NCBI GenBank assembly: GCA_965219085.1
Contig: OZ244720.1
Location: forward strand, 1,216,001-1,280,000
DNA length: 64,000 bases
Reading direction: 5' to 3'
From: Dehalococcoidia bacterium
GTDB lineage: Bacteria; Chloroflexota; Dehalococcoidia; UBA2979
Positions within the stretch are counted from its first letter, which is position 1. The number at the start of each line of letters is the position of its first letter. A model generated the notes under the pieces. That model worked only from the letters and a program-made list of their open reading frames with translations. It did not search any database and was not told the DNA's origin. Below are positions 36,223-55,715 of this stretch, one piece after another. The translations under genes were made by a program, and so were the position numbers.

Positions 36223-37110
36223 TCAGGCGTTGTCGGTAAGAACATGCGAGGCAGTCTCGCCTTCGTAAACACGGATCGAGCCCGCGGGCCCCAGCGCCCC
36301 CAGTGCGGCGTACTTCGTCCATAGCTGCCAGATCGCCTGCCATTGCGAATCAAAGGGATCGGCTTTCTTGATCGGCAGTCCAAGGCTGTTCGCATCATCC
36401 GCTGAAATGATTGCACTGTGGCTCTGTGGTCCACCAACGAGCGAGGCGTCCAAACTGTCCGCGAGGGTCCGCACCTCCGCGTCAGATCGGCCAGGCTGAC
36501 ATGCAAGTGCCTCCCGCAGCTGGTCGCTCGCACGGGCGAGTGCGTTCCGAGCCTGCTGGACGAGCAATCCGGAAACGTCGCTCAGCAACGAGGCGTGGAG
36601 CGGGTAAGTATCCGGGTTCTCCTGGATCCGTCGCTCGGCCTCGTCGACAGCAGAGATGATGGCCTTGCCCGCAGCGAGTGACCCGTCAGGGAGCCGGAAC
36701 TGCGGATCGACCGGGCCAAGATCACTCGTCGGGCCCATGAGAATGCAGTGAGCACCGAGTGCGAGGAGCGTACCGGCGCTCTTCGCTTGATCTGGGACGA
36801 TTACGGTGAGTTCCCGGCATCGAGATTGCGCCTGACGCACAAGACGGATGGCGGTCTCGCCATCGCCGCCGGGGGTCGGCAGCATGACATGGAGATCCTG
36901 TGACGGATCCGCGTCATAAAGTGTCTCCTCAAACAGTGTGACGCTCGAGGGGAACAGTTCGTCGATGAGGACGACAAGTCGGCAGTCGTTGCAATCCTGA
37001 TACTGACGGATCAGCTGCTGTCGCTCGTATCGGGGAGCATTGAACGCTTCGTATAGGGGACTGCGGGATGCCCCAGCAGGTGCATTCTGCTGGGGCAGTT
37101 CGTCGCTCAA
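36223..37110 (-). CDS. ClpP-class serine protease (SDH_sah-like), intact copy A
   Basis: L.TPGG, VP..AKSAGTL.ALGA..I.M...S.LGPVDPQ, late SH; TTG start overlapping upstream stop. Confidence 0.87.
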   Translation of the reverse strand: MSDELPQQNAPAGASRSPLYEAFNAPRYERQQLIRQYQDCNDCRLVVLIDELFPSSVTLFEETLYDADPSQDLHVMLPTPGGDGETAIRLVRQAQSRCRELTVIVPDQAKSAGTLLALGAHCILMGPTSDLGPVDPQFRLPDGSLAAGKAIISAVDEAERRIQENPDTYPLHASLLSDVSGLLVQQARNALARASDQLREALACQPGRSDAEVRTLADSLDASLVGGPQSHSAIISADDANSLGLPIKKADPFDSQWQAIWQLWTKYAALGALGPAGSIRVYEGETASHVLTDNA

Positions 37111-37262
37111 GAGGCTTCGCGTCGTGTACCCGGCAGTGCCGACTTGCCTTCGCGGGCCTTGCGGCCTTGCTCCCGCGCGATCTTCGCTAACTCAATCCGG
37201 TCGTGCCATCTCGGATCTTGGTGCTTTGGCGGCTGAATGGCCTTCTTCGCCTCCTGACTCAT
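37107..37262 (-). CDS. 51-aa basic microprotein, copy A
   Basis: GAGGT RBS; 21/51 ungapped identity to 41182-41337; TTGA coupling to protease. Confidence 0.8.
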   Translation of the reverse strand: MSQEAKKAIQPPKHQDPRWHDRIELAKIAREQGRKAREGKSALPGTRREAS

Positions 37263-37369
37263 CGCGGTACCTCGCTTCCCTGTGTGCATTGTGTCACATC
37301 GGTAACACGTGGAAGCGGAAGGCCAGTTGCGAACAGTTGCGTGCCGCGCCACTGCAACCCGCTTTCCTA

Positions 37370-37771
37370 CTACCCACCCCGCACGAGTATCACCACTGCC
37401 ACGAACGCCAGACTCACCGCGAGGACGATCAGCGCGCTGCGCAGCGCCTGCCCCGCCGGCACGCGCATCGAGCCGGCGCGAGGTGAGCCTCGCCCGTCCC
37501 AACCAAGGTCGATGAGGGTGTCGGCGGCGCGCGGGCCGTCGGTGCGCGGCACCCACAGGGCATACACGAACGGCGCACCGGTCGGATACGCCGACGACGT
37601 GAGGTTGAAGATCGCCGCGTCCTCGATGTGCAGCTCGGCGTCGATGCCGGCATCGAGGAGCGCGCCGTGCCACTCGCCCGCGCGGTCGCCGTCGCGCTGC
37701 ACGGTGAGCAGGATGAGCCCGCGCGCGCCCGGCGCCGCGTCGTCCGGGTCGGGGTGTGCTTCGAAGGTCAT
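37370..37771 (-). CDS. Hypothetical protein with C-terminal TM helix
   Basis: C-terminal part of 37370..39850 frame from MTFEAHP; hydrophobic tail. Confidence 0.6.
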   Translation of the reverse strand: MTFEAHPDPDDAAPGARGLILLTVQRDGDRAGEWHGALLDAGIDAELHIEDAAIFNLTSSAYPTGAPFVYALWVPRTDGPRAADTLIDLGWDGRGSPRAGSMRVPAGQALRSALIVLAVSLAFVAVVILVRGG

Positions 37772-37794
37772 GGCCGCCCGGCCGACCGGAGGGC

Positions 37795-40389
37795 TCAGGC
37801 CGACTGGAGCGCGCGCACCTGCACGGCCGCCGCGCCGTCGGCGGTACCGCCGAGCGGGAACAGCGCCATCACCGCGCCGCCGTCGTACCACGCCGGCGCG
37901 TAGACCGTGCCGGGCGCCACGCCGTCGTCGAGGCGCGCCCTGATGCGCACCTCGGCGTCGCCGGCGGCGAGCACGAGGTCGTCGCCCATGCGGATGCCGA
38001 GCGGCTCGGCGTCGCGCGGGTTGATCAGCGCGTCCTCCTCGCGGTGCAGCTTGTCGGCGTCCTCCGAGTGGATCGAGGAGGCCTCCCACGAGGTGTAGAG
38101 CGAGCGGCCGGTGATGAGCCGCAGCCCCGCCCCGCCTGAATCCATCGGCGCGGCTACCGGCTGGTACTGCGTGCGTGCCGCGGCCGGCATCTCCGGCAGC
38201 GCGCGCGTGCGCGAGGGCATCAGCCCCTCGTAGCGCGTGTAACCCTCGACGCGCTCGGCCGCCTCGGCCATCACGTCGGCGGCGCCGTCGTATGCGAAGT
38301 CGCCGCCGAGGGCGTTCGCGAGCGCGGCGATGATGGCCACCCCCTCGCGCTCGTCGCGCCGCGGCTCCGCGGCGGGGCGCTGGCGGGTGATGCGGCGGTC
38401 GCCGGAGGTGATGGTGCCGTTCCGGGCGAAGAAGGGCAGCTCGGCGAGCACGACGTTGGCGTGCTCCGCCGCCGTCGAGCGCAGCGAGTCGACCACGACC
38501 AGCGCGTCGACCGCCTCGAGGGCGGCGCGCACGTCGTCGGCGCCGGTCGAGCTGAGCAGCGGGTTGTCGTCGTGGATGAGCAGCGCGCGGATCGAGCCGT
38601 CGCGCGCGCCCTCGATGATCTCGTGGAACGAGAGGCCGCCGTCGCCGGGCTCGAGGCCCATGTCGGCGAGGCCGAGCGTGTTCGCGTCGGTCGGCAGGTA
38701 GTGCAGTCCCATCGCCGCGCGGTCGCCGAGGGCGGCGATGGCGAGGTTCGCGCTGGCGCGCGCCTGCCCGGCGGCGGGCTCGACGCTGAACGGGTCCGGC
38801 GCGAAGACGACCGCGAACGTCGGGCGCTCCTCGCTCGCGCCGTTGTCGTCGGACGGCGCCTCGGGCTTGCGGCCGGCGATGAGCTCGCGCGCCTGCGCCA
38901 GGCGGTCGGCGTCGACGCCCGCGGGGGCGGCGGTCTCGCCGGCGGACGCGTCGAGGGCGTGCGCGAGCTGCTGCACGGTGAGTGCCTCGTGGCCGGGGCT
39001 GGGCTGCAGCCAGACCTCGGCGAAGTCGACGAGCTCGCCCCAGCGCGAGGAGATGAGCACGAGCTTCGCGCCGCGCTTCACGACGGCGTCCTTCACGCGC
39101 AGCGAGATGACCTGGTGCGACTCCTCGATGTCCCCGCCCACGACCACGATCGTGTCGGCGTGCTCGATGTCGGCGTAGGTCGATGTCAGGCGGTCGGAGC
39201 CAAGCGCGTCGGCGAAGGCGCTCGCGACCGCGCGATGCACCGGCCCGCCGACGTGGTCGAGGTGCGGCGTGCCGATGACCTCGCGCGCGAGGCGGGTGAG
39301 CAGCGCGGCTTCCTCGTTCGTGGCGAGCGGGGAGCCGAGCACCGCGACGGCGTCCGCGCCGTGCTCCGCCCTGGCGGCAGACAGCGCGCTCGCGGCCTCG
39401 TCCATCGCCTCCTCGGGCGTGACGGGGAGCAGGCGGTCGCCGCGGCGGGCGAGCGAGCGGCTGAGCCGCTGGCCGTCGGTGACGGAGTCGTAGTGGAAGC
39501 GGCCGCGCACGCAGATCTGGTCGCGGCTGGTGGGGTTGAGGCGGTCGGGGCGCACGATCACCGGGCGGCCGTCGCGCGTGCCGTAGGAGATGGTGCAGCC
39601 GACGGAGCAGCCGTTGCACGCCGAGTTCGTCCACTCCTCGGCGAGGGCGACCCACTTGTTGGGCTTCTCCATCAGCGTCGCCGTCGGGCAGACGTCGATG
39701 CAGGCGCCGCAGAAGTCGCAGTTGGACTCGTGGATGGCGCCGCCGGTGCCGAAGGCGATCATCGTCGTCGGGCCCTTGCCCGAGAGGCTGATCGCGCCGG
39801 TGTGGCGCAGGTCGGCGCAGGCGCGCACGCAGCGCGTGCAGATGATGCACATCTGCGGGTCGAACTCAAGGAACGGGTTGGCGCGGTCGGGATCCGGCGG
39901 GGGCGCCTCGTAGTAGGAGCGGTCCTCGCCGACCCACGGCTCCTCGAACTCGCCCATGTCGATCAGCTCGGTCGAGGTCTGGAGTTCGCAGCGGTAGTTC
40001 TTGCTACACGTCAGGCAGCGATGCGTCACCACATCGTCGCGCAGGCAGATCTCGCCCGGCTGGCAGTGGACGCGACGGTGGCAGGTGAGGCAGCGGTCGG
40101 GGTGGTTCGCCATGATCAGCGACATCACCTGCTGGCGCGCGCGCTTGACCTCGGGCTTCTCGGTGTTGACGACCATGCCGTCGTTCGTGACCGCCGTGCA
40201 CGACAGCTGTAGCGGCCCGGGCCGACCGCCCTCGATCTCGACGATGCAGGTGCGGCAGCCGGCGTACGGCTCGAGGCCGTCGATGTAGCAGAGGTTCGTG
40301 ATGCGAACGCCCTGCTCCTTGATCACCTCGACGAGCGGACGGCCCGCCTCGACCTCGATCTCGGCGCCGTTGAGCGTGATGGTCGCCAC
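37795..40389 (-). CDS. NuoG-like / molybdopterin-oxidoreductase-fold Fe-S protein
   Basis: 2Fe-2S C..GCRTC..SC, H...C..C.....C, two CxxCxxCxxxC, CxxCxxxC..C; Fdh Mo-ligand Cys motif absent. Confidence 0.85.
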   Translation of the reverse strand: MATITLNGAEIEVEAGRPLVEVIKEQGVRITNLCYIDGLEPYAGCRTCIVEIEGGRPGPLQLSCTAVTNDGMVVNTEKPEVKRARQQVMSLIMANHPDRCLTCHRRVHCQPGEICLRDDVVTHRCLTCSKNYRCELQTSTELIDMGEFEEPWVGEDRSYYEAPPPDPDRANPFLEFDPQMCIICTRCVRACADLRHTGAISLSGKGPTTMIAFGTGGAIHESNCDFCGACIDVCPTATLMEKPNKWVALAEEWTNSACNGCSVGCTISYGTRDGRPVIVRPDRLNPTSRDQICVRGRFHYDSVTDGQRLSRSLARRGDRLLPVTPEEAMDEAASALSAARAEHGADAVAVLGSPLATNEEAALLTRLAREVIGTPHLDHVGGPVHRAVASAFADALGSDRLTSTYADIEHADTIVVVGGDIEESHQVISLRVKDAVVKRGAKLVLISSRWGELVDFAEVWLQPSPGHEALTVQQLAHALDASAGETAAPAGVDADRLAQARELIAGRKPEAPSDDNGASEERPTFAVVFAPDPFSVEPAAGQARASANLAIAALGDRAAMGLHYLPTDANTLGLADMGLEPGDGGLSFHEIIEGARDGSIRALLIHDDNPLLSSTGADDVRAALEAVDALVVVDSLRSTAAEHANVVLAELPFFARNGTITSGDRRITRQRPAAEPRRDEREGVAIIAALANALGGDFAYDGAADVMAEAAERVEGYTRYEGLMPSRTRALPEMPAAARTQYQPVAAPMDSGGAGLRLITGRSLYTSWEASSIHSEDADKLHREEDALINPRDAEPLGIRMGDDLVLAAGDAEVRIRARLDDGVAPGTVYAPAWYDGGAVMALFPLGGTADGAAAVQVRALQSA

Positions 40390-40410
40390 GGGGTGGAGCC
40401 TCTCCTGCCG

Positions 40411-40965
40411 CTAGCCGCGGTCGAGCTTGCCGGGCAGGTGTTGCGGGCCGAAGGCGCGGTCGCTGCCGGCGACGGCGAAGCGGCCGCGCGCGGTCGGCAT
40501 GGCCGTGCGGAGCGGGATCTCCAGCTGCTGCTGCCCGTTGGGGTAGACCCCTTCGGTGCGCTCGAGGTACGCCTTGGATTCGCGGGTCAGCGCGTCGCGG
40601 TCGCGGTACATGTCCTCGAAGACGTAGACGGCGTCGTCGTAGCGGCCGCCGGACTGGATGGCCTGGTAGGGGCAGGCCTCGGTGCAGAGGCCGCAGTACA
40701 TGCAGATGCGGAAGTCGATCTCGTAGCGGTCGACGTTGAGGGTGCCGTCCTCGCGCGGCGAGGTCTGGACGAGGATGCAGCCATCCGGGCAGGCCTGCGC
40801 GCAGGTGGAGCAGCCGGTGCAGCGCTCCTCGAACCACAGCAGGTTGGTGCGGGCGCGCACCGGGACATCCCGCTCCTCCTCCGGGTAGGAGACCGTAATG
40901 GGCGGGCGGAAGATGTGCTTGAAGGTGACGAGCATGCCCTTGGCGATGCCCATGCCGTAGGCCAC
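40411..40965 (-). CDS. nuoI: NADH-quinone oxidoreductase subunit I
   Basis: G...TFKHIFRPPITVSYPEE, CTGC..C...CP, YEID...CMYCGLC.EACP; GTG 40965. Confidence 0.9.
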   Translation of the reverse strand: MAYGMGIAKGMLVTFKHIFRPPITVSYPEEERDVPVRARTNLLWFEERCTGCSTCAQACPDGCILVQTSPREDGTLNVDRYEIDFRICMYCGLCTEACPYQAIQSGGRYDDAVYVFEDMYRDRDALTRESKAYLERTEGVYPNGQQQLEIPLRTAMPTARGRFAVAGSDRAFGPQHLPGKLDRG

Positions 40966-41181
40966 GGTGCCCCCTCGCCTGGTCGCGGCCGGGCAGCGCC
41001 CGGCGCTCGCGGCGCAGCATAGCGGACGGGTGGCGTGGGGGACAGCGGAGCGAGGCGGGCCGGGGGTGGATGACGCAGCGGCTGAGCCCATCCGCAGTGC
41101 CAAGAGGGCGTCAGGGCGAGTCTGCTCGTGGTTGACGCTGTCGGCCGGTGGCACAATAGTCTCACAGCCGAGGAGGGTGCG

Positions 41182-41337
41182 ATGGTCAAGGAACGCGAAC
41201 CGCTAGCAGCACCCCGCGAGGGCCACGACGAGGACTGGCGCGAGCGAATCGAACGTGCCAAGAGTGCGCGCGAGGATCGTAAGAAGGTGCGCGAAGGGAA
41301 GCCCGCGACGTTCCCAATGCGCCGTACCTCACGTTGA
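41182..41337 (+). CDS. 51-aa basic microprotein, copy B
   Basis: GAGGAGG RBS; W..RIE.AK.ARE...K.REGK shared with copy A. Confidence 0.8.
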   Translation: MVKEREPLAAPREGHDEDWRERIERAKSAREDRKKVREGKPATFPMRRTSR

Positions 41338-41598
41338 GCGAGAACGAGACCGCGGACGCAGGGCAGGTGGACCGCAGCCCACTCTACGAAGCCCAGAACG
41401 CCTCCCGCTATGAGCGCCAGCAGTTAATCCGAACCTATCAGCAAGTCAACGCGTGTCGGCTCGTCGTATTGATCGATGCACTGTTTCCGGAGAGCGTCAC
41501 GCTCTTCGAGGAGACGCTTTACGACGCGAACCGAGACGAGGATCTGCACATAATTCTCTCCACGCCCGGCGGAGACGGTGAGACAGCAATCCGCCTAG

Positions 41599-41749
41599 CA
41601 GGCTGCTGAAAAAGTCTTCCCGGGCGGTCTCGGCCCTGAATCGGCTGATTGCGGCTCACGCGAAACCCTTCGTTTTCAAGGGGTTCTTGTAGCTCCGCAG
41701 CGCTCCAAGCGCTCCGTTTCCGCGCCTTCAGGGGTTTTTCAGCACCCTG
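41599..41749. mobile_element. 151-bp MITE (IS5-like ends), CTAG target duplication
   Basis: TIR CAGGCTGCTGAAAAA / TTTTTCAGCACCCTG (14/15); CTAG at 41595-41598 and 43344-43347. Confidence 0.8.
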
Positions 41750-41837
41750 CTGAGGCTGTCGCACAAACCCCCGAGCGAGGTGGCATCGCGGTAGGATGAG
41801 CATGGCGGCGGGGGCGGAGTGATTCCGGGGTGCCGCC

Positions 41838-43220
41838 GTGACCCAGCGCTTCCTGCCGTGCGACCGTGACCAGCAATACCTGATGCCCGCCAGCCTGCGC
41901 GACTGGCTGCCCGAGGACCACCTCGCGTGGTTCGTGCTCGATGCGGTGAGCCAGCTCGACCTCAGCGCGTTCTACGCGCGCTACCGCGAGGACGGCTGGG
42001 GGCGGAAAGCGTACGAGCCGTCGATGATGGTCGCGCTGCTGCTCTATGCCTACTGCGAGGGCGAGCGCTCGAGCCGCCGGATCGAACGGCGTTGCCGCGA
42101 GGACATCGCCTTCCGCGTGCTGAGCGCGAACCAGCAGCCCGACCACGCCACGATCTGCCGCTTCCGCCGGCAGCACGAGGAGGCGCTCTCGGGCCTGTTC
42201 GCCGGGGTGCTCAGGCTCTGCGCCGAGGCGGGTCTGTTGCGGGTCGGCGTGGTCGCGCTCGACGGGACCAAGCTGCGCGCCAACGCCAGCCGTGAGCGCA
42301 ACCGCACGGATGCGGAGCTCGAGGCCGAGGTGCGGCGCATCCTCGCCGAGGCGGAGCGGGTCGACGCCGGGGAGAATGCGCGCTGCGGCGACGCGCGGGG
42401 CGACGAACTGCCCCCGCAGCTCAGGAACCGCGAGGAGCGCCTGCAGCGGCTGCGCGAGGCGCGGGAGCGGCTGGCGGCTCGTGAGCGGGAGCGGCAGGAG
42501 GACTACGAGGAACGCCTCAGGAGCCGCGCGCAGAAGGACCGGCGCGGGCGCCGCCCGCAGCCGCCGCAGCGCGACCCGGGCGCGAAGGTGAACGTCACTG
42601 ACCCGGACAGCCGCGTGGTGCGTGACTATCACGGCTACTTCCAGGGCTACAACGTGCAGGCGGTGACGACTCGCGACCAGATCATCGTCGCGGCCGAGCT
42701 GACACGTGCGGCGACGGACATGCACGAGCTGCAACCGATGATCGAGGCGGCGAACCGCAACCTGCAGACCCTGGGCCGAGCGCCGGCGCGCGTGCTGCTG
42801 GCCGATGCCGGCTACTACTCCGAGGCGAACGTGCGGCAGGCCGAAGGCAGGGGTCCGGAGTTGCTGCTCGCGACCCGCAGCGACCGCAACCGGCGTGGCG
42901 GCGCAGCGCCGCCGCGCGGGCGCATCCCTGCCGGGCTCTCCGTACGTGAACGGATGGACCGGAAACTGGCGACGCAGCGTGGCCGGCGTCTCTACGAGCA
43001 GCGGCGCTGGATGATCGAACCCGTCTTCGGCGACATCAAGGAGAACCGGGGCATCCGCCGGTTCATGCGGCGCGGGATCGCCGCGTGCGCCAGCGAATGG
43101 AAGCTGATCGCCGCCACCCACAACCTCAAGAAGCTCTATCGCCGGGCGCGCCCGTCACCCCGGCCGGCGAACAGCAACCCCCGACGAGGAGACCGGGCTA
43201 CCGCCGCCGCTGCCGCGTAG
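41838..43220 (+). CDS. IS1182-family transposase
   Basis: LP.DHLA.FV, SSR.IE..C..D..FR.L....PDH.TI.RFR, DGTK..ANAS, TDPDSR, DAGY, EPVFG.IK. Confidence 0.93.
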   Translation: MTQRFLPCDRDQQYLMPASLRDWLPEDHLAWFVLDAVSQLDLSAFYARYREDGWGRKAYEPSMMVALLLYAYCEGERSSRRIERRCREDIAFRVLSANQQPDHATICRFRRQHEEALSGLFAGVLRLCAEAGLLRVGVVALDGTKLRANASRERNRTDAELEAEVRRILAEAERVDAGENARCGDARGDELPPQLRNREERLQRLREARERLAARERERQEDYEERLRSRAQKDRRGRRPQPPQRDPGAKVNVTDPDSRVVRDYHGYFQGYNVQAVTTRDQIIVAAELTRAATDMHELQPMIEAANRNLQTLGRAPARVLLADAGYYSEANVRQAEGRGPELLLATRSDRNRRGGAAPPRGRIPAGLSVRERMDRKLATQRGRRLYEQRRWMIEPVFGDIKENRGIRRFMRRGIAACASEWKLIAATHNLKKLYRRARPSPRPANSNPRRGDRATAAAAA

Positions 43221-43252
43221 CGCGCCTGCCCCGCCAGACACGACCGCTCCGC

Positions 43253-43294
43253 GCCAACTGCCAACTGCCAACTGCCAACTGCCGACTGCCGACC
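43253..43294. repeat. Heptamer tandem repeat GCC(A/G)ACT x6 in IS1182 3' end
   Basis: 4x GCCAACT, GCCGACT, GCCGACC. Confidence 0.85.
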
Positions 43295-43930
43295 GGCTAC
43301 CCTTTTGGCACTCCACCCACGCGACTCCGTGCAACAGCCTCTGCTAGTACGCCAAGCACAGTCCCGTTGCAGGGAACTGACAGTCATTGTGCCCGACCAA
43401 GCAAAGAGCGCGGGGACACTGTTGGTGCTTGGGGCGCACAGAATCCTCATGGGGCCGACAAGTGATCTCGGCCCCGTCGATCCGCAATTCCCTAGCCCGA
43501 ATCCACCGATCGAAGCTTGACGGGGCGGGCTGCCGGGCTGGCGGAGAGTTCGGCGGGTGTGCCGTGGTGCGCCAGGCGGTGCCGGGGGCGGGCCGGAGCG
43601 AGGAGCCGGCGCTCAGCGCGGCTCGGGGGCGCTGAGAGCGCGGGCGCGAGGGTGCGCGAGGCGTGCGCGGGCATGCTGGCGCGAGCCTCGGACCCGGGCC
43701 GGCGCTGTGAGCGGGCGTCAGGCCGGGAGCGGAAGCGCCCGTAACCGCGCCAGGGCGGCTGCCCACTGCCCGGCCCAGGGCCAGCGCCTGGGGAGGTGCA
43801 GGGTCCAGCGCCGGGCAGAGATGGCATGAGGGCCGGCCTCCTCCTCAAGGGGGATACTCGCCCCCTGAAACAGCGGCCTCGATGGGCCAAGAGCGGCTCG
43901 GAAGAGCCTTGACGAGGTAGGAGACCGGCC

Positions 43931-45019
43931 ATGCAGCAGCATATCGCAACGACGCGGAGCATTGAAGGCAAGGATGGGCCCGCCATCACCGTCGGCCTCG
44001 ACGTGGGCGATCGTTACACGCACGTCCACGCCCTCGGCGCCGGCGGGGAGGTGATACGCGAGCGGCGCGTCCGCACCGCGGCTGCGGCGCTGGGCGCAGC
44101 GCTGACCGGCCTCTCCCCGGCGCGGGTCGTGCTCGAGGCGGGGCCGCGCTCGCCGTGGCTGAGCCGCGTCGTGGCGGACCTCGGCCATGAGGTGGTCGTC
44201 GCCAACCCTCGCCAGGTCGCGCTGATCGCCGGCAGCCAGCGCAAGACCGACCGGCTCGACGCCGCGTGGCTGGCGCGGCTGGGGCGCTTCGACCCGGAGT
44301 TGCTCGCCCCGATCCGCCACAGGAGCGAGCAGAGTCAGCACGACCTCGCCGTGGTGCGCGCCCGCGACGCGCTGGTGCGATCGAGGACGCTGCTCATCAA
44401 CCACGTGCGCGGGGCCGTCAAGGCCTGCGGCGCCGCGCTGCCGTCGTGCACGGCCGCGGCCTTTCACCGCAAGACGGCGGACCACATCCCCGACGGGCTG
44501 CGCCCGGCGCTGCTGCCGCTGGTGGAGGCGATTGGCGAGCTGACCGTGCGCACTGCGGCGGCCGGGCGGGAGGTCGAGGCGTTGTGCGAGGCCCACCCCG
44601 AGACCGCGGCGCTGCGCCAGGTCACCGGCGTGGGGCCGATCACCGCGCTCACGTTCGTGCTGACGATCGAGAACCCGGGGCGCTTCCCGCAGAACCGGGA
44701 GGTGGGGGCCTACCTCGGGCTCGTGCCGCGGCAGCGCGACTCAGGGGAGCGCGCGCCGCAGCTCGGCATCGGCAAGAGCGGCGACGCGGGCTTGCGGCGG
44801 CTGCTGGTGCAGGCCGCGCACTACATCCTCGGTCCCTTCGGACCCGATAGCGACCTGCGTCGCTGGGGTGAGCGCTACGCGGGAACAGGGGCGGGCAACG
44901 CGAAGAAGCGCGCGGTCGTGGCCGTCGCGAGGCGGTTGGCGGTGCTGCTGCTCGCGCTGTGGAAGAGCGGGGAGGTCTACGAGCCGCTGCGTCACGCCGT
45001 GGCCCGCGAGGCCGCGTAG
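43931..45019 (+). CDS. IS110-family recombinase (DEDD RuvC-like + Tnp20)
   Basis: VGLDV, VLEAG, KTDRLDA, GVGPITA, AYLGLVP...DSG, K.A.VAVAR.L. Confidence 0.95.
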   Translation: MQQHIATTRSIEGKDGPAITVGLDVGDRYTHVHALGAGGEVIRERRVRTAAAALGAALTGLSPARVVLEAGPRSPWLSRVVADLGHEVVVANPRQVALIAGSQRKTDRLDAAWLARLGRFDPELLAPIRHRSEQSQHDLAVVRARDALVRSRTLLINHVRGAVKACGAALPSCTAAAFHRKTADHIPDGLRPALLPLVEAIGELTVRTAAAGREVEALCEAHPETAALRQVTGVGPITALTFVLTIENPGRFPQNREVGAYLGLVPRQRDSGERAPQLGIGKSGDAGLRRLLVQAAHYILGPFGPDSDLRRWGERYAGTGAGNAKKRAVVAVARRLAVLLLALWKSGEVYEPLRHAVAREAA

Positions 45020-45285
45020 CCGGGAGGCGCCGCCTCAGCCGGCGGGGACCGGAGATCAGGAAGGAAGACCCGAGCGCGAACGAAGCCACGCACGTGATGC
45101 CGAGCACGGGCGACTGCGAGCACCCACTTGTCCCATCGAGGACGCGGCAGAGATAGCAGCGCCCCCTGGAAGCAGGATGTGCCTTCATGCACCGGGCTCG
45201 CTGTAGCCCACCGAGAGTGCGGATAGAAGCTTGGCACAGGCTCCGCGACCGGACATCACGAGCGGCTTGAATGGAGCGCCATACC
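45020..45285 (+). ncRNA. Putative bridge/seek RNA of the IS110 element (ends approximate)
   Basis: Two stem-internal-loop-stem units with loop sequences matching the target and the element end. Confidence 0.75.
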
Positions 45286-45392
45286 CGGAGAAGGCCGCCA
45301 CGTCGGCCTTGCGGAAAGACCGTCCCTCATAGAAGCGCCATACCCGGAGAAGGCCGCCACGTCGGCCTTGCGGAAAGACCGTCCCTCATAGA
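45275..45392. repeat. Perfect 59-bp tandem duplication of the IS110 right end
   Basis: 45275-45333 = 45334-45392. Confidence 0.92.
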
Positions 45393-47304
45393 AGTGGGTG
45401 AGCCGTCCGGCGAGGGCGAAATAGCGCCACCTGAGCGTCCTGGTCGTGACGATTCCCTCGCCGAGCCCGAGCCGTGCCGTCCAGCGGGCGAGGTTGTGCG
45501 CGATCACCTGCACCGCGAGCCATGCCGCGTTCGCGGCGAAGCGGCCCGAGGGGAGATGGTTGAGCCCGACGCCGTACTTGAGGTCGCGGATCGCGTTCTC
45601 GATCTCGGCGTGACGGCGATGGTCAGCCTCCAGCTCCATCATCTCCCCGGCGCGGTCGGTGATGAAGGCGTGGTAGCTGTACGTCGCGAAGAGCGCCAGC
45701 TGTGAGCCGGGCGTCGGCTGGACGCGCCGCGCGATGAGCCGAACCGCGCTGGCGTCCTTCGCGTGCCGGAACGGCGTGTAGGTCGTCTCGGCGACAGCGG
45801 CGCCGCCCGGCAGCCAGTACGGGATCGGCGTCCAGTCCTCCTCAGGTATCGCCTCGAGCAGCGTGCGTACGTTCGGCTGCTGGCGGATCGTGATTGAGAA
45901 GCGGACATCCAGCGCGCGGCAGGCGGCGACGACGGCGTGGTTGTAGAAGCCGCTGTCGGCGCGCATCGTGAGCTGCCCGCTCGCTCCGGCGTCGCGTACC
46001 CGCGCCACCGTCTCACGCAGGAAGTGTGCGGCCCCCCGTGCGGTGTTGGCGCGGCCCTCGCGCAGCCGCGCCATCAGCACGTCACCCGTCCCGGCCGCGA
46101 CCGCGAGCAGCGGGTGATAGCCGCGCACGCCCGTGTAGCCGTGGTGCCGGGCGCCCTCCTTGGCCAGGCCGTAGGTCTCACAGATCGTCGAGTCGAGGTC
46201 GATCGTGAACGGCGCCGCGCCGGGTCCCGCCCCGGCCGCCCATGCGCGGGCGAGCAATGCGCGGCTGACGCGGTCGAGCTGGCGGACGTGGCCCCAGCGG
46301 AAGCTGCGCAGGAAGGTTCCGAGGGTGGACGGCGCCTTGACCGTGCAACCCAGCACGCTCGCCGTCCCGCCGGCGCGCAAGGCAGCGGCGTCGTCGATGC
46401 AGTCGCCGCCCGCGAGCGCCGAGGCGACCAGGGTCAGCAGCTTGTCGCCGGCGTTCGCGCGCCCCGCTGCGTCACCGAGGTCGAGGTGGGCGTCCGCCAG
46501 TGCACGGAGGCCGAGCCGGCCAGCGAGCGTGGCGGGGAGCAGCAGGCCTGCGTGGTCCACGAGGCGGTCGTCGCCTGAGGCGATGTCTATCCGCTCGGGG
46601 TTACTCGCTGCTAGCATCGAATGGGTGCTCCTGTGGCTGTGACGTGAATTCTCAAAACCCATTGTCCCAGCTACAGCGGAGCACCCAACCGCAGCCCCTC
46701 GCGCGCTCTTCTTCGGTGGATCAGGGCTTAGCGCGGACGGATCACTAGCAGCGGGAAAGGCAATCATCGCGGCAGTCGAGGACGCGGAGAGACGGGTTCA
46801 AGCGAACCCGGAAACTTACGCGCTGCACGCCGCTCTGTTGAGCGACGTGACAGCCCTGATGGTGCAGCAGGCTCGCGATGAAATCGCCCGTAGCGGGGCT
46901 CAGGTGAGGGAGGCACTCGCGTCTCATCCTGAGCGCCCTATCGAGGACATTAACGGCCTTGCTCAGGTCCTGCACGCCCCGCTGATCGATGAGACATCCA
47001 GTCACCGGGCGACGATCTCGGCGCGAGATGCTATCGGCTTTGGGCTACCTGTTGAGGAAGTCGACCCGAGCGGTCCGCAGTGGCAAGCGATTTGGCGCAT
47101 CTGGACAAAGTACGTGGCTCTGGGCCCCGTGCGAGTCTACGAAGGACAAACCGCCTCGCAGCTCTTGCGGGCGCCCTTCGCGATCCAGTAGCGCTCCGTG
47201 ACCGGCAGCCCGTCACGTCCGCCGGCGCCGACGCCATCGCGCTACCGCCTCTACCCTGGCCCGCCCCAGCTACGAGTACATGGGCATCTGGTCACCGTTC
47301 CTCG

Positions 47305-47435
47305 CCGCGAGGCTCTCGGATGCCCTCGCGGGCATGACCGCCGACCGCTGGGCTCCCGGCACCCACATCACGGCACGCAGCATCTGGGGCGGTCGTGTGT
47401 TCGCGGCTTCGTGCTTCGTCGCCATCGAGGATCGC
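47305..47435 (+). repeat. 131-bp direct repeat, copy 1 (truncated 5' end of DUF402 gene)
   Basis: Near-identical to 48279-48409. Confidence 0.88.
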
Positions 47436-47585: not shown

Positions 47586-47849
47586 GTGAAGAACATCACC
47601 GTCTCCGTCGACGACGAGACCTACCGGCTGTCCCGGATCAGGGCCGCCGAGGCCGGGACGTCGGTCTCTGCCCTGGTGCGCTCCTACCTGCTGGAGCTCG
47701 TGCAGGGCCAGCCGAGCGAGACGCGCTTCGACCGCCTCAAGCGCCTGCAGGACGAGACCCTGGCGGCGATCTGGGCGCGAGGCGGCGGGCTGCGTGCCGA
47801 GGACCTGCTGACCCGCGACGAACTCCACGACCGCGATGCGCTTCGTTGA
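47586..47849 (+). CDS. RHH-type antitoxin
   Basis: MKNITVSVDD..YR..RI.AAE.GTSVSALVR.YL; overlaps PIN gene. Confidence 0.87.
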   Translation: MKNITVSVDDETYRLSRIRAAEAGTSVSALVRSYLLELVQGQPSETRFDRLKRLQDETLAAIWARGGGLRAEDLLTRDELHDRDALR

Positions 47850-48261
47850 CACGAACGTCCTACTCTATGCACTCAGAGCCTCGCCCGGTGACGAACGCAA
47901 GCGCCAAATCGCGCTTGATCTGCTCACGCGGAGCGACCTCGTCCTCTCCGTACAGGTGCTGCAGGAGTTCTACGCGCAGGCCACGCGTCTCTCGTCGCCG
48001 GGCGCGTTGACCCATGACGAAGCTGCCGCCGCCATCGAGTCACTCACTCGCTTCCCGGTCCAGGCCATGACTCTGGACGTACTGCGCCTGGCGCTCGCGC
48101 TCCGCCGACGCTTCGGGCTATCGTACTGGGACGGTGCGATCCTCGCGGCGGCCCGCCTCACGGGCTGCGATCTCGTGTACTCCGAGGACTTCAGTCACGA
48201 ACAGGACTACGACGGGCTGCGCGTGAACAGCCCCTTCGCGGACGCAGTGCCGGGAGCATGA
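47836..48261 (+). CDS. vapC: PIN-domain toxin VapC
   Basis: FVDTNVLLY, S.QVLQEF, LSYWD..I.AAA...GC..VYSED. Confidence 0.92.
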   Translation: MRFVDTNVLLYALRASPGDERKRQIALDLLTRSDLVLSVQVLQEFYAQATRLSSPGALTHDEAAAAIESLTRFPVQAMTLDVLRLALALRRRFGLSYWDGAILAAARLTGCDLVYSEDFSHEQDYDGLRVNSPFADAVPGA

Positions 48262-48307
48262 CGGCCTTCGTACCCGGCCCGCGAGGCTCTCGGATACCCT
48301 CGCGGGC

Positions 48308-48934
48308 ATGACCGCCGACCGCTGGGCTCCCGGCGCGCACATCACCGCCCGCAGCATCTGGGGCGGCCGCGTGTTCGCGGCTTCGTGCTTCGTCGTCATC
48401 GAGGATCGCGGCGACGTGATCGTGGCCTGCACGCCGGCCGGCACCCGCTGGAAGCGCCCTACCGACCTCGACGGCAACGACATCCGCCTGCCGCACGGCG
48501 CATGGCGCCTGCGCGACGACGTCTGGCGCGGCCGCGGCATGGTGCGCGTGTGGATGCGGGATGTCGCCCACTCCGTGCTCATCTTCCTCGGCGATGGCGA
48601 CGTCGGCATCTGGTACGTGAACCTCGAGACGCCGTTCCGGCGGAACCCCATCGGCCTCGACCTGACCGACCAGCACCTCGACATCATCTTCCCGGCCGAC
48701 CTCGGCGAGCCGCGCTGGAAGGACGAGGACGAACTCGAGGAGGCCGTCGCCTTCGGCAGCATGACCGCGGAGGAAGCCGCGGCGGTTCGCGCCGAGGCCG
48801 AGCGCGCCATCGAGTGGATCCGCCGCGGCGACCACCCGGCCATCGACGACCGCTGGCGCACGTGGACGCCGCCCGCGGAGTGGGCCGTGCCCGTGCTCGC
48901 CCCCGGCTGGGACACGTTGGCACCCTCGATCTAG
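48308..48934 (+). CDS. DUF402 family protein, copy 1
   Basis: WYVNLE.P..R......D..LDI, WKDEDE. Confidence 0.85.
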   Translation: MTADRWAPGAHITARSIWGGRVFAASCFVVIEDRGDVIVACTPAGTRWKRPTDLDGNDIRLPHGAWRLRDDVWRGRGMVRVWMRDVAHSVLIFLGDGDVGIWYVNLETPFRRNPIGLDLTDQHLDIIFPADLGEPRWKDEDELEEAVAFGSMTAEEAAAVRAEAERAIEWIRRGDHPAIDDRWRTWTPPAEWAVPVLAPGWDTLAPSI

Positions 48935-52870: not shown

Positions 52871-53265
52871 GGCGTCATCTCGGCACGCTCGCGCCGCCAG
52901 GTCCCGACGGCCTCTCGCACGGCGGCGGCGGCGAGGACGGAGCAGTGGACCTTCGACTTCGGCAGCCCCCCGACGGCGTCGGCGTAGTCGTCACGCGTCA
53001 GCGCCACGGCCTCGTCGAGCGTGCGCCCCGTGAGCAGCTCGGTCGCGGCCGACGAGGTGCCGATCGAGGCGGGGCACCCCGACGTCAGGAACGACGCAGC
53101 GGCCACGCGCTCATCCTCGATGCGCAGGAAGATGCGCATGGAGTCCCCGCACACGGGATTGGTCACGAACGCCTCGGCGTCGGCGTCATCCATGGCGCCG
53201 GCGTTGCGCGGGTGCTCGAAGTGGTCGATGAGGGCGTCGCTGTAACCCGTGGTGGTTCGTGGCAT
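52867..53265 (-). CDS. IscU/NifU-type Fe-S scaffold
   Basis: YS....DHF..PRN.G, NPVCGD, GC..S..SS, K.HCS.LA. Confidence 0.92.
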   Translation of the reverse strand: MPRTTTGYSDALIDHFEHPRNAGAMDDADAEAFVTNPVCGDSMRIFLRIEDERVAAASFLTSGCPASIGTSSAATELLTGRTLDEAVALTRDDYADAVGGLPKSKVHCSVLAAAAVREAVGTWRRERAEMTP

Positions 53266-53299
53266 GGGGGTATTGTCGCACGGGTTGGGGTGGTGGAGG

Positions 53300-54262
53300 C
53301 TAGCTGGGATCAGACACGATCCTCAGCGAATGGTTGAATATCTCGTCAACGAAATCCAACCAGCTGCCCTCGTCATGGAGGAGCAGATCGATATCGAAGT
53401 CACGCTTCATGCGCATATCGTCAAGGCGCTCTCGCATCGTTTGAGTAACAACACCTACAACAAGGAAGTTGTCACAACGCGGAGGCGCTTCATCGAACGT
53501 CTTCTTGACAGCGCCAAGACGCTCCAGCGCGCCCGCAGGATCCTTTCCCGCCTTCACTTCGATGAGAGTGACGAGTGCACCGTCCTTCTCGAAGCTGATG
53601 TCCGGCTCAGCAGCGAACACCATCCGGACACCGCCCTCCAGAACCCAGGAGCCGCGCGGCTCTGACTCATCAGGTGGATCCTGATCGCCCGTTAGGAGCC
53701 CGTTCGCGCGCACCCACTCAAACATACTGTTCTTGACGGCACTCTCTCCGAGCTTGCCTATGAGATTCCGCATCGAGCCATCCGCACTGATGCCGATGGT
53801 TGCGAGCACGTTGCGGTACCCGTTCTCCATCGTCCAATCCGTCTTGTCGGTGATGAGCGAACTGATTACGGCGTTGTAGAGACGGCACACCCTCAAGACG
53901 TTCTCATCGGTGAGCCGCGGTTTGGCCGTGGAATCCTCCCAGCGGTCGACGCCGACCGCTATTTCGCTGACGCGCTTCAGCGGCAGCAGAGCCAGACCTC
54001 GGTAGTGGAGGGAGGCTTCTGGCACGACCTTGAGCACGGAGGGATGCGCGAAGACAAGGCTCGCCACGATCCCCGCTTCACGCACGTGCTCCCAAGCCGG
54101 TTCGTGAATGGCCAGCGATTCCCTGTCCGAGTAGTCGGCCGTCTCCCCGACCATCTTGATCACGCCCTTGAGCAAAGCGTCTGCTTCCGCTCCGGAGGCC
54201 ATCCGGCGTGCAATGAGCACGGAGCGCTCGATGGCATCGTCGGTCCGCCGCCCGCTAGTCAA
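53300..54262 (-). CDS. Type II restriction endonuclease, XcyI-like
   Basis: GS.RN.IG..GE, EPDI, IEVK.G.D......R.G...K; TTG start overlapping MTase end. Confidence 0.75.
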   Translation of the reverse strand: MTSGRRTDDAIERSVLIARRMASGAEADALLKGVIKMVGETADYSDRESLAIHEPAWEHVREAGIVASLVFAHPSVLKVVPEASLHYRGLALLPLKRVSEIAVGVDRWEDSTAKPRLTDENVLRVCRLYNAVISSLITDKTDWTMENGYRNVLATIGISADGSMRNLIGKLGESAVKNSMFEWVRANGLLTGDQDPPDESEPRGSWVLEGGVRMVFAAEPDISFEKDGALVTLIEVKAGKDPAGALERLGAVKKTFDEAPPRCDNFLVVGVVTQTMRERLDDMRMKRDFDIDLLLHDEGSWLDFVDEIFNHSLRIVSDPS

Positions 54263-55715
54263 GGCGTCCGTGTTCCGGCATGCGCCAGTGATACACGCAT
54301 TTGCGCAACTCGCGGCGTCCGAACCGTCCCATCTGTTGGCTGGCGTTGCCCTTCCCTCGAGGGAGGACGCTGATCTCCTCGCACTCGAAGCCGCATGCCT
54401 CGGCGATGTCCGAGAGGATGAGATCCACGGGAACCTCCTCACCGTGGTACTGGACATTGTCGTTGACCATGACCACGCGGCCACCCGGTCTCGTGACTCG
54501 TGCTAACTCGGCGACGATTACTGCCATCTCCAAGAAGTAGTTCTCCACTAGTCGGATGACATGTGGATTGCCCAACTCGGCCCGTCGCTGCAGCAAGGCA
54601 TGGAGCGCCTCGTGGAGTGCCGCTTGCGACCGGAACGCCTCCTTAGCACGATGCAGAATATCACTACGCGGATATTCGCGATCAAGGAATGTCGCTTTCG
54701 ATCGGTTCTCTACGGTCGCGCTGAGCAACGCTTGGCGGAGCTGACCGAATCTTGCTTTGTCGTAACCCAGCCATGCCAGCTCTAGCGCGTAGGTCCGCGT
54801 GTAGTCGTATCGATTGGCGTACGGAGGCGAGGTGATCGTCAGTCCTACCGACTGATCCGGCAGAAGTGCGAGCTCATCGAGGGCCGAGCCCTGCAAGAGG
54901 CGGGGTCGTTCGCCGCCGTAGCGCGATGCGAGTTCCGGTGCATCCTCCGTAATCTCCGTGAGGCGTTGTTCGAGGGCTTCAGCGAAGCTCGGGATGGGCC
55001 CCTTGTACATACCCCCGCGAAGGTCGCGTCCCGACCGGTCGTCCCAGCGCAGGTACTGGCCGTCTTTCCGGGTGTAACTCACTTCCTCCAGTACGCTCAT
55101 GCAAGCCACGTCGAGGATCGTTCGAAGCGGCTCGTCGTCACAGGTCTGGAGAAAGGCTCGTGCCCTCGCGATCGCGCGCTCAGTTTCAGCTGAGAAGGCA
55201 TGTTCGGTGATCGCAACGTGGGGAAAGCGGAACGCCTTAGCAGTACTGCGGCCGCGCAGTGCGCTGAGTAGAGCGGCTCCGGCCGATTCGATTGCGGTCG
55301 ACGTGACTCCGTTGGCGACGAGCGATATCGCCCACGCGGCTCGGACGCCGACGGGCATGATTTCGATCCCCGTCGCTTCTCGCCCAGCGCCACCCGCGAC
55401 AAGTGCTGTCGTGCCGAGGCCGGCGAAGGGATCGAGTACAGGTCCGTCGGCCTTGAGGAGAGCACTCTGGACCAACTCCGCGGAGAAGCCTTCCTTGTAG
55501 CGCAACCAGCGCAGCCCAGGTTGCGTCTTATTTCCTTGGTACGACACGAGGCGGCGGGTGAGTTCGTCTCGGACTACTAGCCGGTCGATGAAACGCTGGT
55601 GCAGGGCGTCCCGCTCGCTCCGATCGGCTTCGCCAAGGACCTCTACCTCTCTGCCATTGACACGGTAGGTGCCTTGAATGTCCCTGACCGATCGAGTCGC
55701 TGTCTCGCCTACCAC
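54255..55715 (-). CDS. DNA methyltransferase, probably N4-cytosine
   Basis: W..YKEGFS..LV, LDPFAG.GTT, TSPPY. Confidence 0.87.
   Translation of the reverse strand: MVGETATRSVRDIQGTYRVNGREVEVLGEADRSERDALHQRFIDRLVVRDELTRRLVSYQGNKTQPGLRWLRYKEGFSAELVQSALLKADGPVLDPFAGLGTTALVAGGAGREATGIEIMPVGVRAAWAISLVANGVTSTAIESAGAALLSALRGRSTAKAFRFPHVAITEHAFSAETERAIARARAFLQTCDDEPLRTILDVACMSVLEEVSYTRKDGQYLRWDDRSGRDLRGGMYKGPIPSFAEALEQRLTEITEDAPELASRYGGERPRLLQGSALDELALLPDQSVGLTITSPPYANRYDYTRTYALELAWLGYDKARFGQLRQALLSATVENRSKATFLDREYPRSDILHRAKEAFRSQAALHEALHALLQRRAELGNPHVIRLVENYFLEMAVIVAELARVTRPGGRVVMVNDNVQYHGEEVPVDLILSDIAEACGFECEEISVLPRGKGNASQQMGRFGRRELRKCVYHWRMPEHGRLD

Follow-up and report, generated by a model that had tools for sequence, protein, structure and literature searches.

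A basic microprotein coupled to an SDH-type Clp-fold protease: two diverged copies in a Dehalococcoidia genome and their relatives across bacterial phyla

We analyzed a 64,000-nt stretch of the genome of a Dehalococcoidia bacterium (Chloroflexota, lineage UBA2979; assembly GCA_965219085.1, contig OZ244720.1, positions 1,216,001 to 1,280,000), hereafter the window, which carries two copies of a two-gene module. The upstream gene encodes a basic microprotein of 51 amino acids (aa), and the downstream gene, the start of which overlaps the stop codon of the microprotein gene, encodes a serine protease of the SDH class with a Clp-like fold. Comparison of related loci indicates that the small open reading frame (ORF) is a real, conserved protein-coding gene, and database searches that the microprotein family is covered by no named family; the module is an autonomous, horizontally moving two-gene operon. 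Judging from its invariant residues and predicted fold, the protease looks active. Already known are the Pfam family to which the protease belongs and, by name, a defense system described as 'hypothetical protein + SDH_sah'. We consider it quite possible, albeit somewhat short of probable, that the microprotein gates its cognate protease within a conflict module, that is, a defense or addiction unit.

Two diverged copies of the module in the window

An earlier note on this DNA, made from the nucleotide sequence alone, described two diverged copies of the module, and both are present as described. The span it assigned to them begins correctly at 36223; the end given, 41598, falls short, reaching only the first piece of the copy B protease. 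Copy A and the start of copy B comprise the following features:

36223..37110, minus strand: protease A, intact, 295 aa, TTG start; SDH-type Clp-fold serine protease with the AKSAG motif (Lys110-Ser111)
37107..37262, minus strand: microprotein A, 51 codons (37110..37262) plus TGA stop; isoelectric point (pI) 10.6; predicted single helix, residues 19-36
41132..41160, plus strand: promoter-like site TTGACG-17-AATAGT just 5' of microprotein B; consensus match only
41182..41337, plus strand: microprotein B, 51 codons (41182..41334) plus TGA stop; intact; pI 10.5
41334..41598, plus strand: protease B piece 1, residues ~1-90; TTG start overlapping the microprotein stop; ends at CTAG

Direct reading of the DNA agrees with the note in that each copy has a 51-aa ORF with a good ribosome-binding site and a stop codon that overlaps the TTG start of the protease. 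In copy A, a Shine-Dalgarno sequence (GAGGT) lies 6 nt 5' of the microprotein ATG, and the junction reads tcTTGAgc, the TGA stop and the TTG start sharing TTGA. In copy B, GAGGAGGG is located 4 nt 5' of the ATG, and the same overlap is found at the junction cgTTGAgc. Microprotein A is concealed, as had been noticed, within a longer ORF of the mechanical ORF list, where it makes up the last 51 codons of a 188-aa ORF (37107..37673). The promoter scan yielded one site for copy B, compared with 0.0 expected from shuffles, and no site 5' of copy A.

The two microproteins align without gaps over 48 residues, with the 21 identities that had been counted previously (E 8e-9 for this single comparison). 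Each copy is closer to proteins from elsewhere than to the other copy. The closest relative of protease A, P0001, is 89% identical to it, and the pieces of the copy B protease show 79% identity to P0011 and P0028 from elsewhere and only 69% to copy A; similarly, the closest relative of microprotein A is 84% identical, and that of microprotein B, another protein, 59% identical. A recent duplication in place is thus ruled out. On these identities, copies A and B are two diverged members of one family that lie 4 kb apart and point away from each other; no third copy of the module was found in the 64-kb window. The protease genes had been described as poorer in G+C (GC) than the host, which holds: the GC content of the module pieces is 0.60-0.65 vs 0.696 for the window, and just 1.9% of 888-nt segments of the window have a GC content as low as that of protease A. 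A second low-GC stretch (0.617-0.619, against the same window value) is located at 53001-55000.

The microprotein is conserved, coding and without a named family

The locus set consisted of the best 80 (L001-L080, with flanks) of 174 relatives of the protease, identified among 185,579 species that were each represented by a single genome. With a profile built from seven microproteins, 73 of the 80 loci (E<=0.01) proved to have an ORF on the strand of the protease that ends where the protease begins. Four more loci, L046, L054, L067 and L071, carry weaker yet correctly placed, visibly homologous ORFs (that of L071 recognized by eye), which brings the number of intact microproteins to 77/80. The loci with a microprotein directly upstream of the protease span at least seven phyla. 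The remaining three loci contain remnants. In L063, the microprotein is frameshifted; in L035 (4649-5881), it is cut by ~1.3 kb carrying a same-orientation 410-aa ORF, a putative transposase gene, upstream of a whole protease ORF (279-281 aa); in L056 (4552-5990), the N-terminal part of the microprotein lies 1.4 kb upstream, and the protease ORF is again whole (277 aa). The expectation of the earlier note that the microprotein would accompany other homologs of the protease is thus borne out by 77 intact copies and three remnants among 80 loci.

The second expectation, that the microprotein evolves under purifying selection, is likewise supported: across 15 independent close pairs, the microprotein has a pooled ratio of nonsynonymous to synonymous substitution rates (dN/dS) of 0.22, compared with 0.12 for the protease. 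An earlier value of 0.77 came from pairs picked by synonymous divergence (pS), which mixed in saturated distant pairs, and was replaced by the estimate from the 15 pairs.

When a profile of 83 microproteins was compared with 1.84 billion representative proteins, 457 matches were obtained at E<=0.001, 96 of them at E<=1e-10. Among the best 150 of the 457 matches, all but one are 49-182 aa long, and none is fused to a protease; the lone long match, P0227 (701 aa), is an unrelated repeat protein. In one relative of 106 aa (P0127), the conserved helix occurs twice in tandem, by natural internal duplication or as an assembly artefact. Five close homologs of 50-54 aa are annotated as proteins elsewhere, and a word-based protein search returned six proteins only, including those of the window itself. 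We also considered that the microprotein and the protease could be one gene split by a frameshift. This idea was dropped because the loci differ in the stop codon used (TGA, TAG or TAA) as well as in the spacing, and because the best 150 of the 457 matches include no fused form.

The microproteins have a median length of 62 aa (range 49-90 aa, with the starts chosen by us), are strongly basic (median pI 10.4) and are not hydrophobic. A variable N-terminus, often with a PAL-x-PPP stretch, precedes the core D-P-D-W-x-E-R-I-E-x-A-K-x-A-R-E-x-x-x-K-A-R-x-G-K-P-x-x-F. In the 78 microproteins counted, the conserved residues are W (65), A26 (77), R30 (67), R37 (73), G39 (57), K40 (57), P41 (59) and F44 (56). 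The best-kept positions, 19, 23, 26, 30, 33 and 37 (W19, I23, A26, R30, A/G33 and R37), follow a 4-3-4-3-4 spacing, which places the conserved residues on one face of a helix; the G-K-P-x-x-F motif comes after this amphipathic helix. The AlphaFold2 (AF2) model contains a single helix that spans residues 19-36 and is flanked by disordered ends (mean predicted local distance difference test score, pLDDT, 76.6; block mean of 94 for residues 21-30). Searches of Pfam and NCBIfam with the microprotein identified no family, and PHROGs gave nothing below E 0.33; a look-alike search of the Atlas yielded nothing but unnamed clusters, the values of which (0.78-0.79) fall short of the meaningful level.

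The protease belongs to a deep clade of SDH-type Clp-fold proteases

The assignment of the protease to the SDH/Clp class, made from the sequence in the earlier note, is supported by a Pfam match, by the predicted fold and by structural matches. Protease A scores 40.6 bits against Pfam PF01972 (SDH_protease; gathering cut-off 31.3), compared with 33.9 bits for piece 2 of copy B; the match is confined to residues 73-157 of protease A. Against the NCBIfam equivalog NF047768 (Clp_like_SDH), protease A scores only 61.9 bits, far under the cut-off of 250, which sets it apart as a separate deep clade. Protease A also matches PHROG 11747, a family of unknown function (1.7e-33), and the protease family comprises 1545 protein clusters with E<=0.001 among 7573 candidates.

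The AF2 model of protease A (pLDDT 84.5; predicted template modeling score, pTM, 0.82) shows a Clp-like core followed by a helical C-terminal half (residues 148-295), and its best Foldseek matches in the PDB are ClpP and 1510-N, both with a probability of 1.00. Lys110 and Ser111 of the AKSAG motif are invariant in 81/81 protease rows. Ser111 aligns with the ASAG serine of 1510-N, which we take to be the catalytic serine of that enzyme. The candidates for the general base, all of them invariant, are Lys110, His74, Asp130, Asp135 and His231. The proteases are acidic (median pI 5.2), share 51-77% identity across phyla and, in the case of protease A, lack a membrane segment (highest 19-residue Kyte-Doolittle mean 1.13).

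Coupling, co-inheritance and mobility of the pair

Among the 76 loci compared, the stop and start codons overlap as NTGA in 20, the genes overlap by 8 nt in 6, and a gap of 0-40 nt separates them in 17. In the remaining loci, the protease start could not be placed by a simple rule (the canonical start nearest to the microprotein stop): in 5/76 loci, there is no canonical protease start near the microprotein stop, and in ~20 mostly actinobacterial loci, the nearest one lies 100-200 nt upstream, which is implausible. The identities of microproteins and proteases co-vary (Spearman 0.46 for 76 modules, compared in 2850 pairs); given the shared history of relatives, this correlation indicates co-inheritance and does not prove co-evolution. 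The nearest relatives of the microprotein and of the protease differ between the two window copies. All-vs-all ORF clustering detected no third conserved gene: if antisense shadows of the protease are set aside, nothing else is common to more than 14/80 loci. Conservation of the pair in 77/80 loci, along with the co-varying identities, agrees with the description of the module as a two-gene unit.

In the tree of 81 proteases (L021 was left out as too short), the phylum labels require 21 changes compared with a minimum of 6, with Pseudomonadota, Gemmatimonadota, Acidobacteriota, Chloroflexota, Actinomycetota, Spirochaetota and Rhodothermota interleaved.

To characterize the genomic context, one neighbor per side was chosen, crudely, as the longest ORF; of the 152 ORFs thus obtained, 62 have a Pfam match at E<=1e-5. 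Restriction-modification, defense, toxin-antitoxin or mobile genes account for 20 of these 62 neighbors, in 18/80 loci (a count without a matched control), including restriction-modification, McrBC, SIR2, NERD, DruA-like, PIN, Fic and RelA/SpoT genes as well as those for ImmA-type peptidase, antidote, transposase, integrase and relaxase; five more annotated neighbors are ambiguous. By an estimate from general knowledge, a share of 20/62 is several times the genomic background. The setting of the module is one of mobile, conflict-type genes; the other 42 annotated neighbors are metabolic or housekeeping genes.

In the window, copy B is followed by a gene pair encoding ribbon-helix-helix (RHH) and PIN proteins (47586-48261). 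A 131-nt direct repeat (94%), at 47305-47435 and 48279-48409, flanks this pair. The repeat is the 5' end of a DUF402 gene (48308-48934), so that the RHH+PIN toxin-antitoxin cassette is bracketed by two copies of this gene start, one truncated and one whole.

Decay of copy B and the region between the copies

Downstream of piece 1, the protease gene of copy B continues in two further pieces that are separated by insertions:

41599..43343, plus strand: insertion 1, an insertion sequence; gene for a 460-aa DUF772/DDE_Tnp_1_6/DDE_Tnp_1 transposase at 41838-43220; CTAG on both sides
43344..43495, plus strand: protease B piece 2, residues ~90-139; carries the AKSAG nucleophile motif
43496..46731, no strand assigned: insertion 2, ~3.2 kb; CTAG at the left junction, TTAG at the right
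43931..45019, plus strand: IS110-family transposase gene of insertion 2
45256..46767, minus strand: DDE_Tnp_1_4 transposase gene of insertion 2
46732..47191, plus strand: protease B piece 3, residues ~140 to the end

Thus, as had been read from the sequence, protease B was struck by insertions at two sites, with transposase genes between its three pieces, and microprotein B stayed whole. The junctions of both insertions are at CTAG/TTAG. The right end of insertion 1 carries a short array of a 7-nt unit (GCCAACT and variants) at 43253-43301, immediately ahead of piece 2 of the protease, and insertion 2 contains a perfect 59-nt tandem duplication (45275-45392), close to where the minus-strand ORF of the DDE_Tnp_1_4 transposase ends. 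The two module copies are separated by NuoG-like (864 aa) and NuoI-like (ORF of 247 aa) genes (37795-41154). Because the listed NuoI-like ORF starts just 27 nt from microprotein B, the true start of the NuoI-like gene is probably further in.

A possible conflict module and the alternatives

In the scenario that we tentatively favor, the microprotein would be produced in excess of the protease, owing to its strong ribosome-binding site as opposed to the weak, coupled start of the protease. The conserved face of the microprotein helix would dock on the cognate protease and restrain or otherwise gate it. Loss, titration or degradation of the microprotein, for instance, upon phage infection or loss of the element, would then allow the protease to act on cellular or phage proteins. 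A protease set free by microprotein loss would make the unit a conflict module, that is, either a defense system or a toxin-antitoxin-like addiction unit. In favor of this scenario are the conservation and coupling of the two genes, the opposite charges of their products (median pI 10.4 vs 5.2), the invariant Lys-Ser of the protease, the mobile, conflict-type context and the company of SDH proteases elsewhere, in phages, prophages and Bub-type operons. With respect to its architecture, the module might represent a deep-branching relative of the 'hypothetical protein + SDH_sah' defense system.

A broader version of this scenario, which we regard as possible but rather doubtful, is that of a new two-part conflict system in which a single-helix basic microprotein of 50-90 residues gatekeeps an ATPase-independent Clp-fold effector protease, the two spreading as a unit among at least seven phyla. 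If this is the case, the system would include the first Clp-fold toxin with a microprotein antidote, and the 457 clusters of microproteins would make up a new protein family, as yet without a name, for which the partner is defined.

Several observations weigh against a conflict module gated by the microprotein. The decay of the module is two-sided: in copy B and in L021, the protease is broken and the microprotein intact, in L035 and L056, the microprotein is broken and the protease ORF intact, and in L063, both genes are damaged. Loss of the microprotein by itself is not expected of an antitoxin in the strict sense, although an upstream insertion may also silence the protease. Furthermore, most of the annotated neighbors (42/62) are ordinary metabolic or housekeeping genes; PADLOC models match 0/6 of the window proteins or pieces; the microprotein, unlike typical type II antitoxins, has no DNA-binding domain in Pfam, NCBIfam and PHROG scans or in the AF2 model, which is a single helix; and the small proteins encoded next to SDH-type proteases in three phages (see below) show no similarity to it (hhalign probability <=0.13%). 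The prediction of a complex from the protease and microprotein alignments, which scored 0.00 in two runs, weighs neither for nor against binding.

Under one alternative, which appears improbable, the microprotein is a substrate or pro-peptide that the protease cuts at a fixed site, for example, near G-K-P-x-x-F, freeing an active peptide, or else a decoy whose cleavage reports a trigger. The closest relative with a solved structure, 1510-N, was deposited with a substrate peptide (3viv), and full-length relatives with 32% identity belong to Bub-type operons, in which peptidases process a ubiquitin-like protein. The variable tail after the motif (median 12, range 0-60 residues; the motif is present in 63/76 microproteins) would fit this scheme as well. 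However, there is no defined cleavage site, the microprotein does not belong to the beta-grasp proteins, and its strongest conservation maps to one face of the helix, resembling a docking surface more than a scissile loop.

It also seems unlikely that the pair has a housekeeping function, with an adaptor and a protease involved in protein quality control or metabolic regulation without any role in conflicts, and with a patchy distribution resulting from gene loss and niche-specific use. This would be compatible with the strong conservation of the protease across phyla and with the metabolic and housekeeping neighbors, such as acyl-CoA dehydrogenase, enoyl-CoA hydratase, PhyH and QueC. Yet the family is rare, with its 174 relatives in the genomes of 185,579 species; there is no conserved neighborhood, the phyla are mixed on the protease tree, and the GC content is low. 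The presence of two diverged copies in the window, one of them decaying, is not what such a function would lead one to expect either.

Reversal of the roles, with a harmful microprotein that, for example, binds nucleic acid or the ribosome and a protease that degrades it as the antidote, is highly improbable, even if the very basic microprotein and the strong ribosome-binding site of its gene would be in line with it. In copy B, the microprotein gene is intact and well signaled despite the destruction of the protease, and rescue by copy A would need to work across only 21/48 aligned identities; L021 similarly combines a truncated protease with an intact microprotein ORF. A membrane toxin is not in question because the microprotein is not hydrophobic. 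The antidote-first gene order, which is usual in toxin-antitoxin pairs, also points against reversed roles. Finally, it is most improbable that the small ORF is a regulatory leader, possibly ribosome-arresting, through which translation controls the coupled protease start and the product of which has no function of its own: the stop/start overlap, the weak downstream start codon and the conserved W ... R-x-G-K-P pattern, which loosely recalls arrest peptides such as SecM, would suit a leader, but the Pro is present in only 59/78 microproteins and absent from copy A, the distance from the motif to the stop ranges from 0 to 60 residues, the genes are 0-40 nt apart in 17/76 loci, and the heptad-like stripe along the predicted helix 19-36 is typical of a folded binding element.

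Whichever role the microprotein has, gene callers routinely miss microproteins, and here one has a fixed enzymatic partner across phyla. The pair offers a small, clean system in which to study how a Clp-fold protease is controlled without an AAA+ unfoldase, and a mechanistic entry to the SDH protease family, for which literature searches yielded no functional study. Should the gated protease indeed act as a defense or addiction module, it would add a protease-based effector class.

Comparison with known systems

The SDH family (PF01972, NF047768) shares with protease A the Clp fold and the KSAG...GP.D.Q block, which is also present in a Klebsiella phage protein; the family profile leaves the helical C-terminal half of protease A (148-295) uncovered. 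Compared with ClpP, protease A has the same fold (Foldseek probability 1.00; TM score 0.51-0.61, normalized to the target) at an identity of 12-17%, and differs by the extra helical C-terminal half. In addition, no AAA+ partner gene lies beside the protease gene, and the His and Asp of the triad are not evident in the alignments.

Among the solved structures, the best sequence match (E 5.6e-6) is 1510-N of Pyrococcus, a member of the NfeD/STOPP family (PDB 3bpp, 3viv), with the nucleophile Ser aligned. Lys138 of 1510-N, which we assume to be its catalytic Lys, falls outside the aligned stretch, and its best-guess counterpart in protease A, Lys148, varies among K, R and Q. 1510-N is membrane-bound, whereas protease A has no hydrophobic segment. 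1510-N reportedly cuts the product of the neighboring gene, its operon partner stomatin. In the module analyzed here, the partner is a 51-aa helix, and neither stomatin nor another conserved neighbor gene was found at the 80 loci.

The nearest full-length relatives on plasmids, with 32% identity to protease A over 84-94% of its length, are SDH-type proteases encoded by the fifth and last gene of Multi_ubiq-E2-ThiF-DUF6527 operons on alphaproteobacterial plasmids of Methylocystis, Phenylobacterium and Rhizobium (L081:532-3831, L082:480-3837 and L083:553-3843), with Fic and RHH genes flanking the operons. These are the Bub operons of PMC11601603 and PMC11601596; term searches of the main text of both found 0 occurrences of ClpP or Clp. 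The likeness to the window module is limited to this last gene, as the module lacks genes for Ubl, E1, E2 and DUF6527.

In E. coli, 49/5426 genomes contain a match. In the one region inspected (L089:4163-5993), a lambdoid prophage, the gene annotated by the Prokaryotic Genome Annotation Pipeline (PGAP) as 'SDH family Clp fold serine proteinase' directly follows a CI/LexA-type repressor gene, with no small upstream ORF annotated before it. In phage lambda, the slot behind the CI repressor gene holds rexAB. Three phages carry a small ORF directly 5' of an SDH-type protease gene, in accessory regions where HicAB or ImmA/Xre genes are the neighbors. The small ORF encodes 71 aa in a Klebsiella phage, where it overlaps the protease gene, 112 aa in a Porphyromonas phage and 90 aa in a Mu-like phage of Shewanella. 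The proteases of these phages align over only 29-64% of the query, with 27-40% identity.

The module shares with type II toxin-antitoxin systems a small upstream gene whose stop codon overlaps the start of the downstream enzyme gene (TTGA in both window copies). Mobility, patchy distribution, the presence of several copies per genome, decay by insertion sequences and location next to other toxin-antitoxin pairs are further common features. The module differs in that its decay strikes either gene. We know of no Clp-fold toxin.

The closest parallel in architecture is offered by FS_HP_SDH_sah, a DefenseFinder model name that appears in PMC13532340. Both the two window copies and 77/80 loci have its two-gene architecture. 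The likeness consists in a protein of no known family adjacent to an SDH protease, in mobile DNA, and the pattern of a small ORF directly 5' of an SDH protease extends to the three phages, the small proteins of which are unrelated to the microprotein. FS_HP_SDH_sah reportedly stems from the work of Fillol-Salom et al. (Cell, 2022) on phage-inducible chromosomal islands. Unlike enterobacteria, the hosts of the module analyzed here are high-GC environmental lineages. The initial description of the system as uncharacterized accordingly needs qualification: the microprotein is in no named family, and literature searches retrieved no description of this protease clade, of the microprotein family or of their strict pairing, but a named defense model with the same layout exists. 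A defense or addiction role of the unit could also account for the repeated occurrence of SDH proteases in the immunity regions of prophages and next to operons for ubiquitin-like conjugation.

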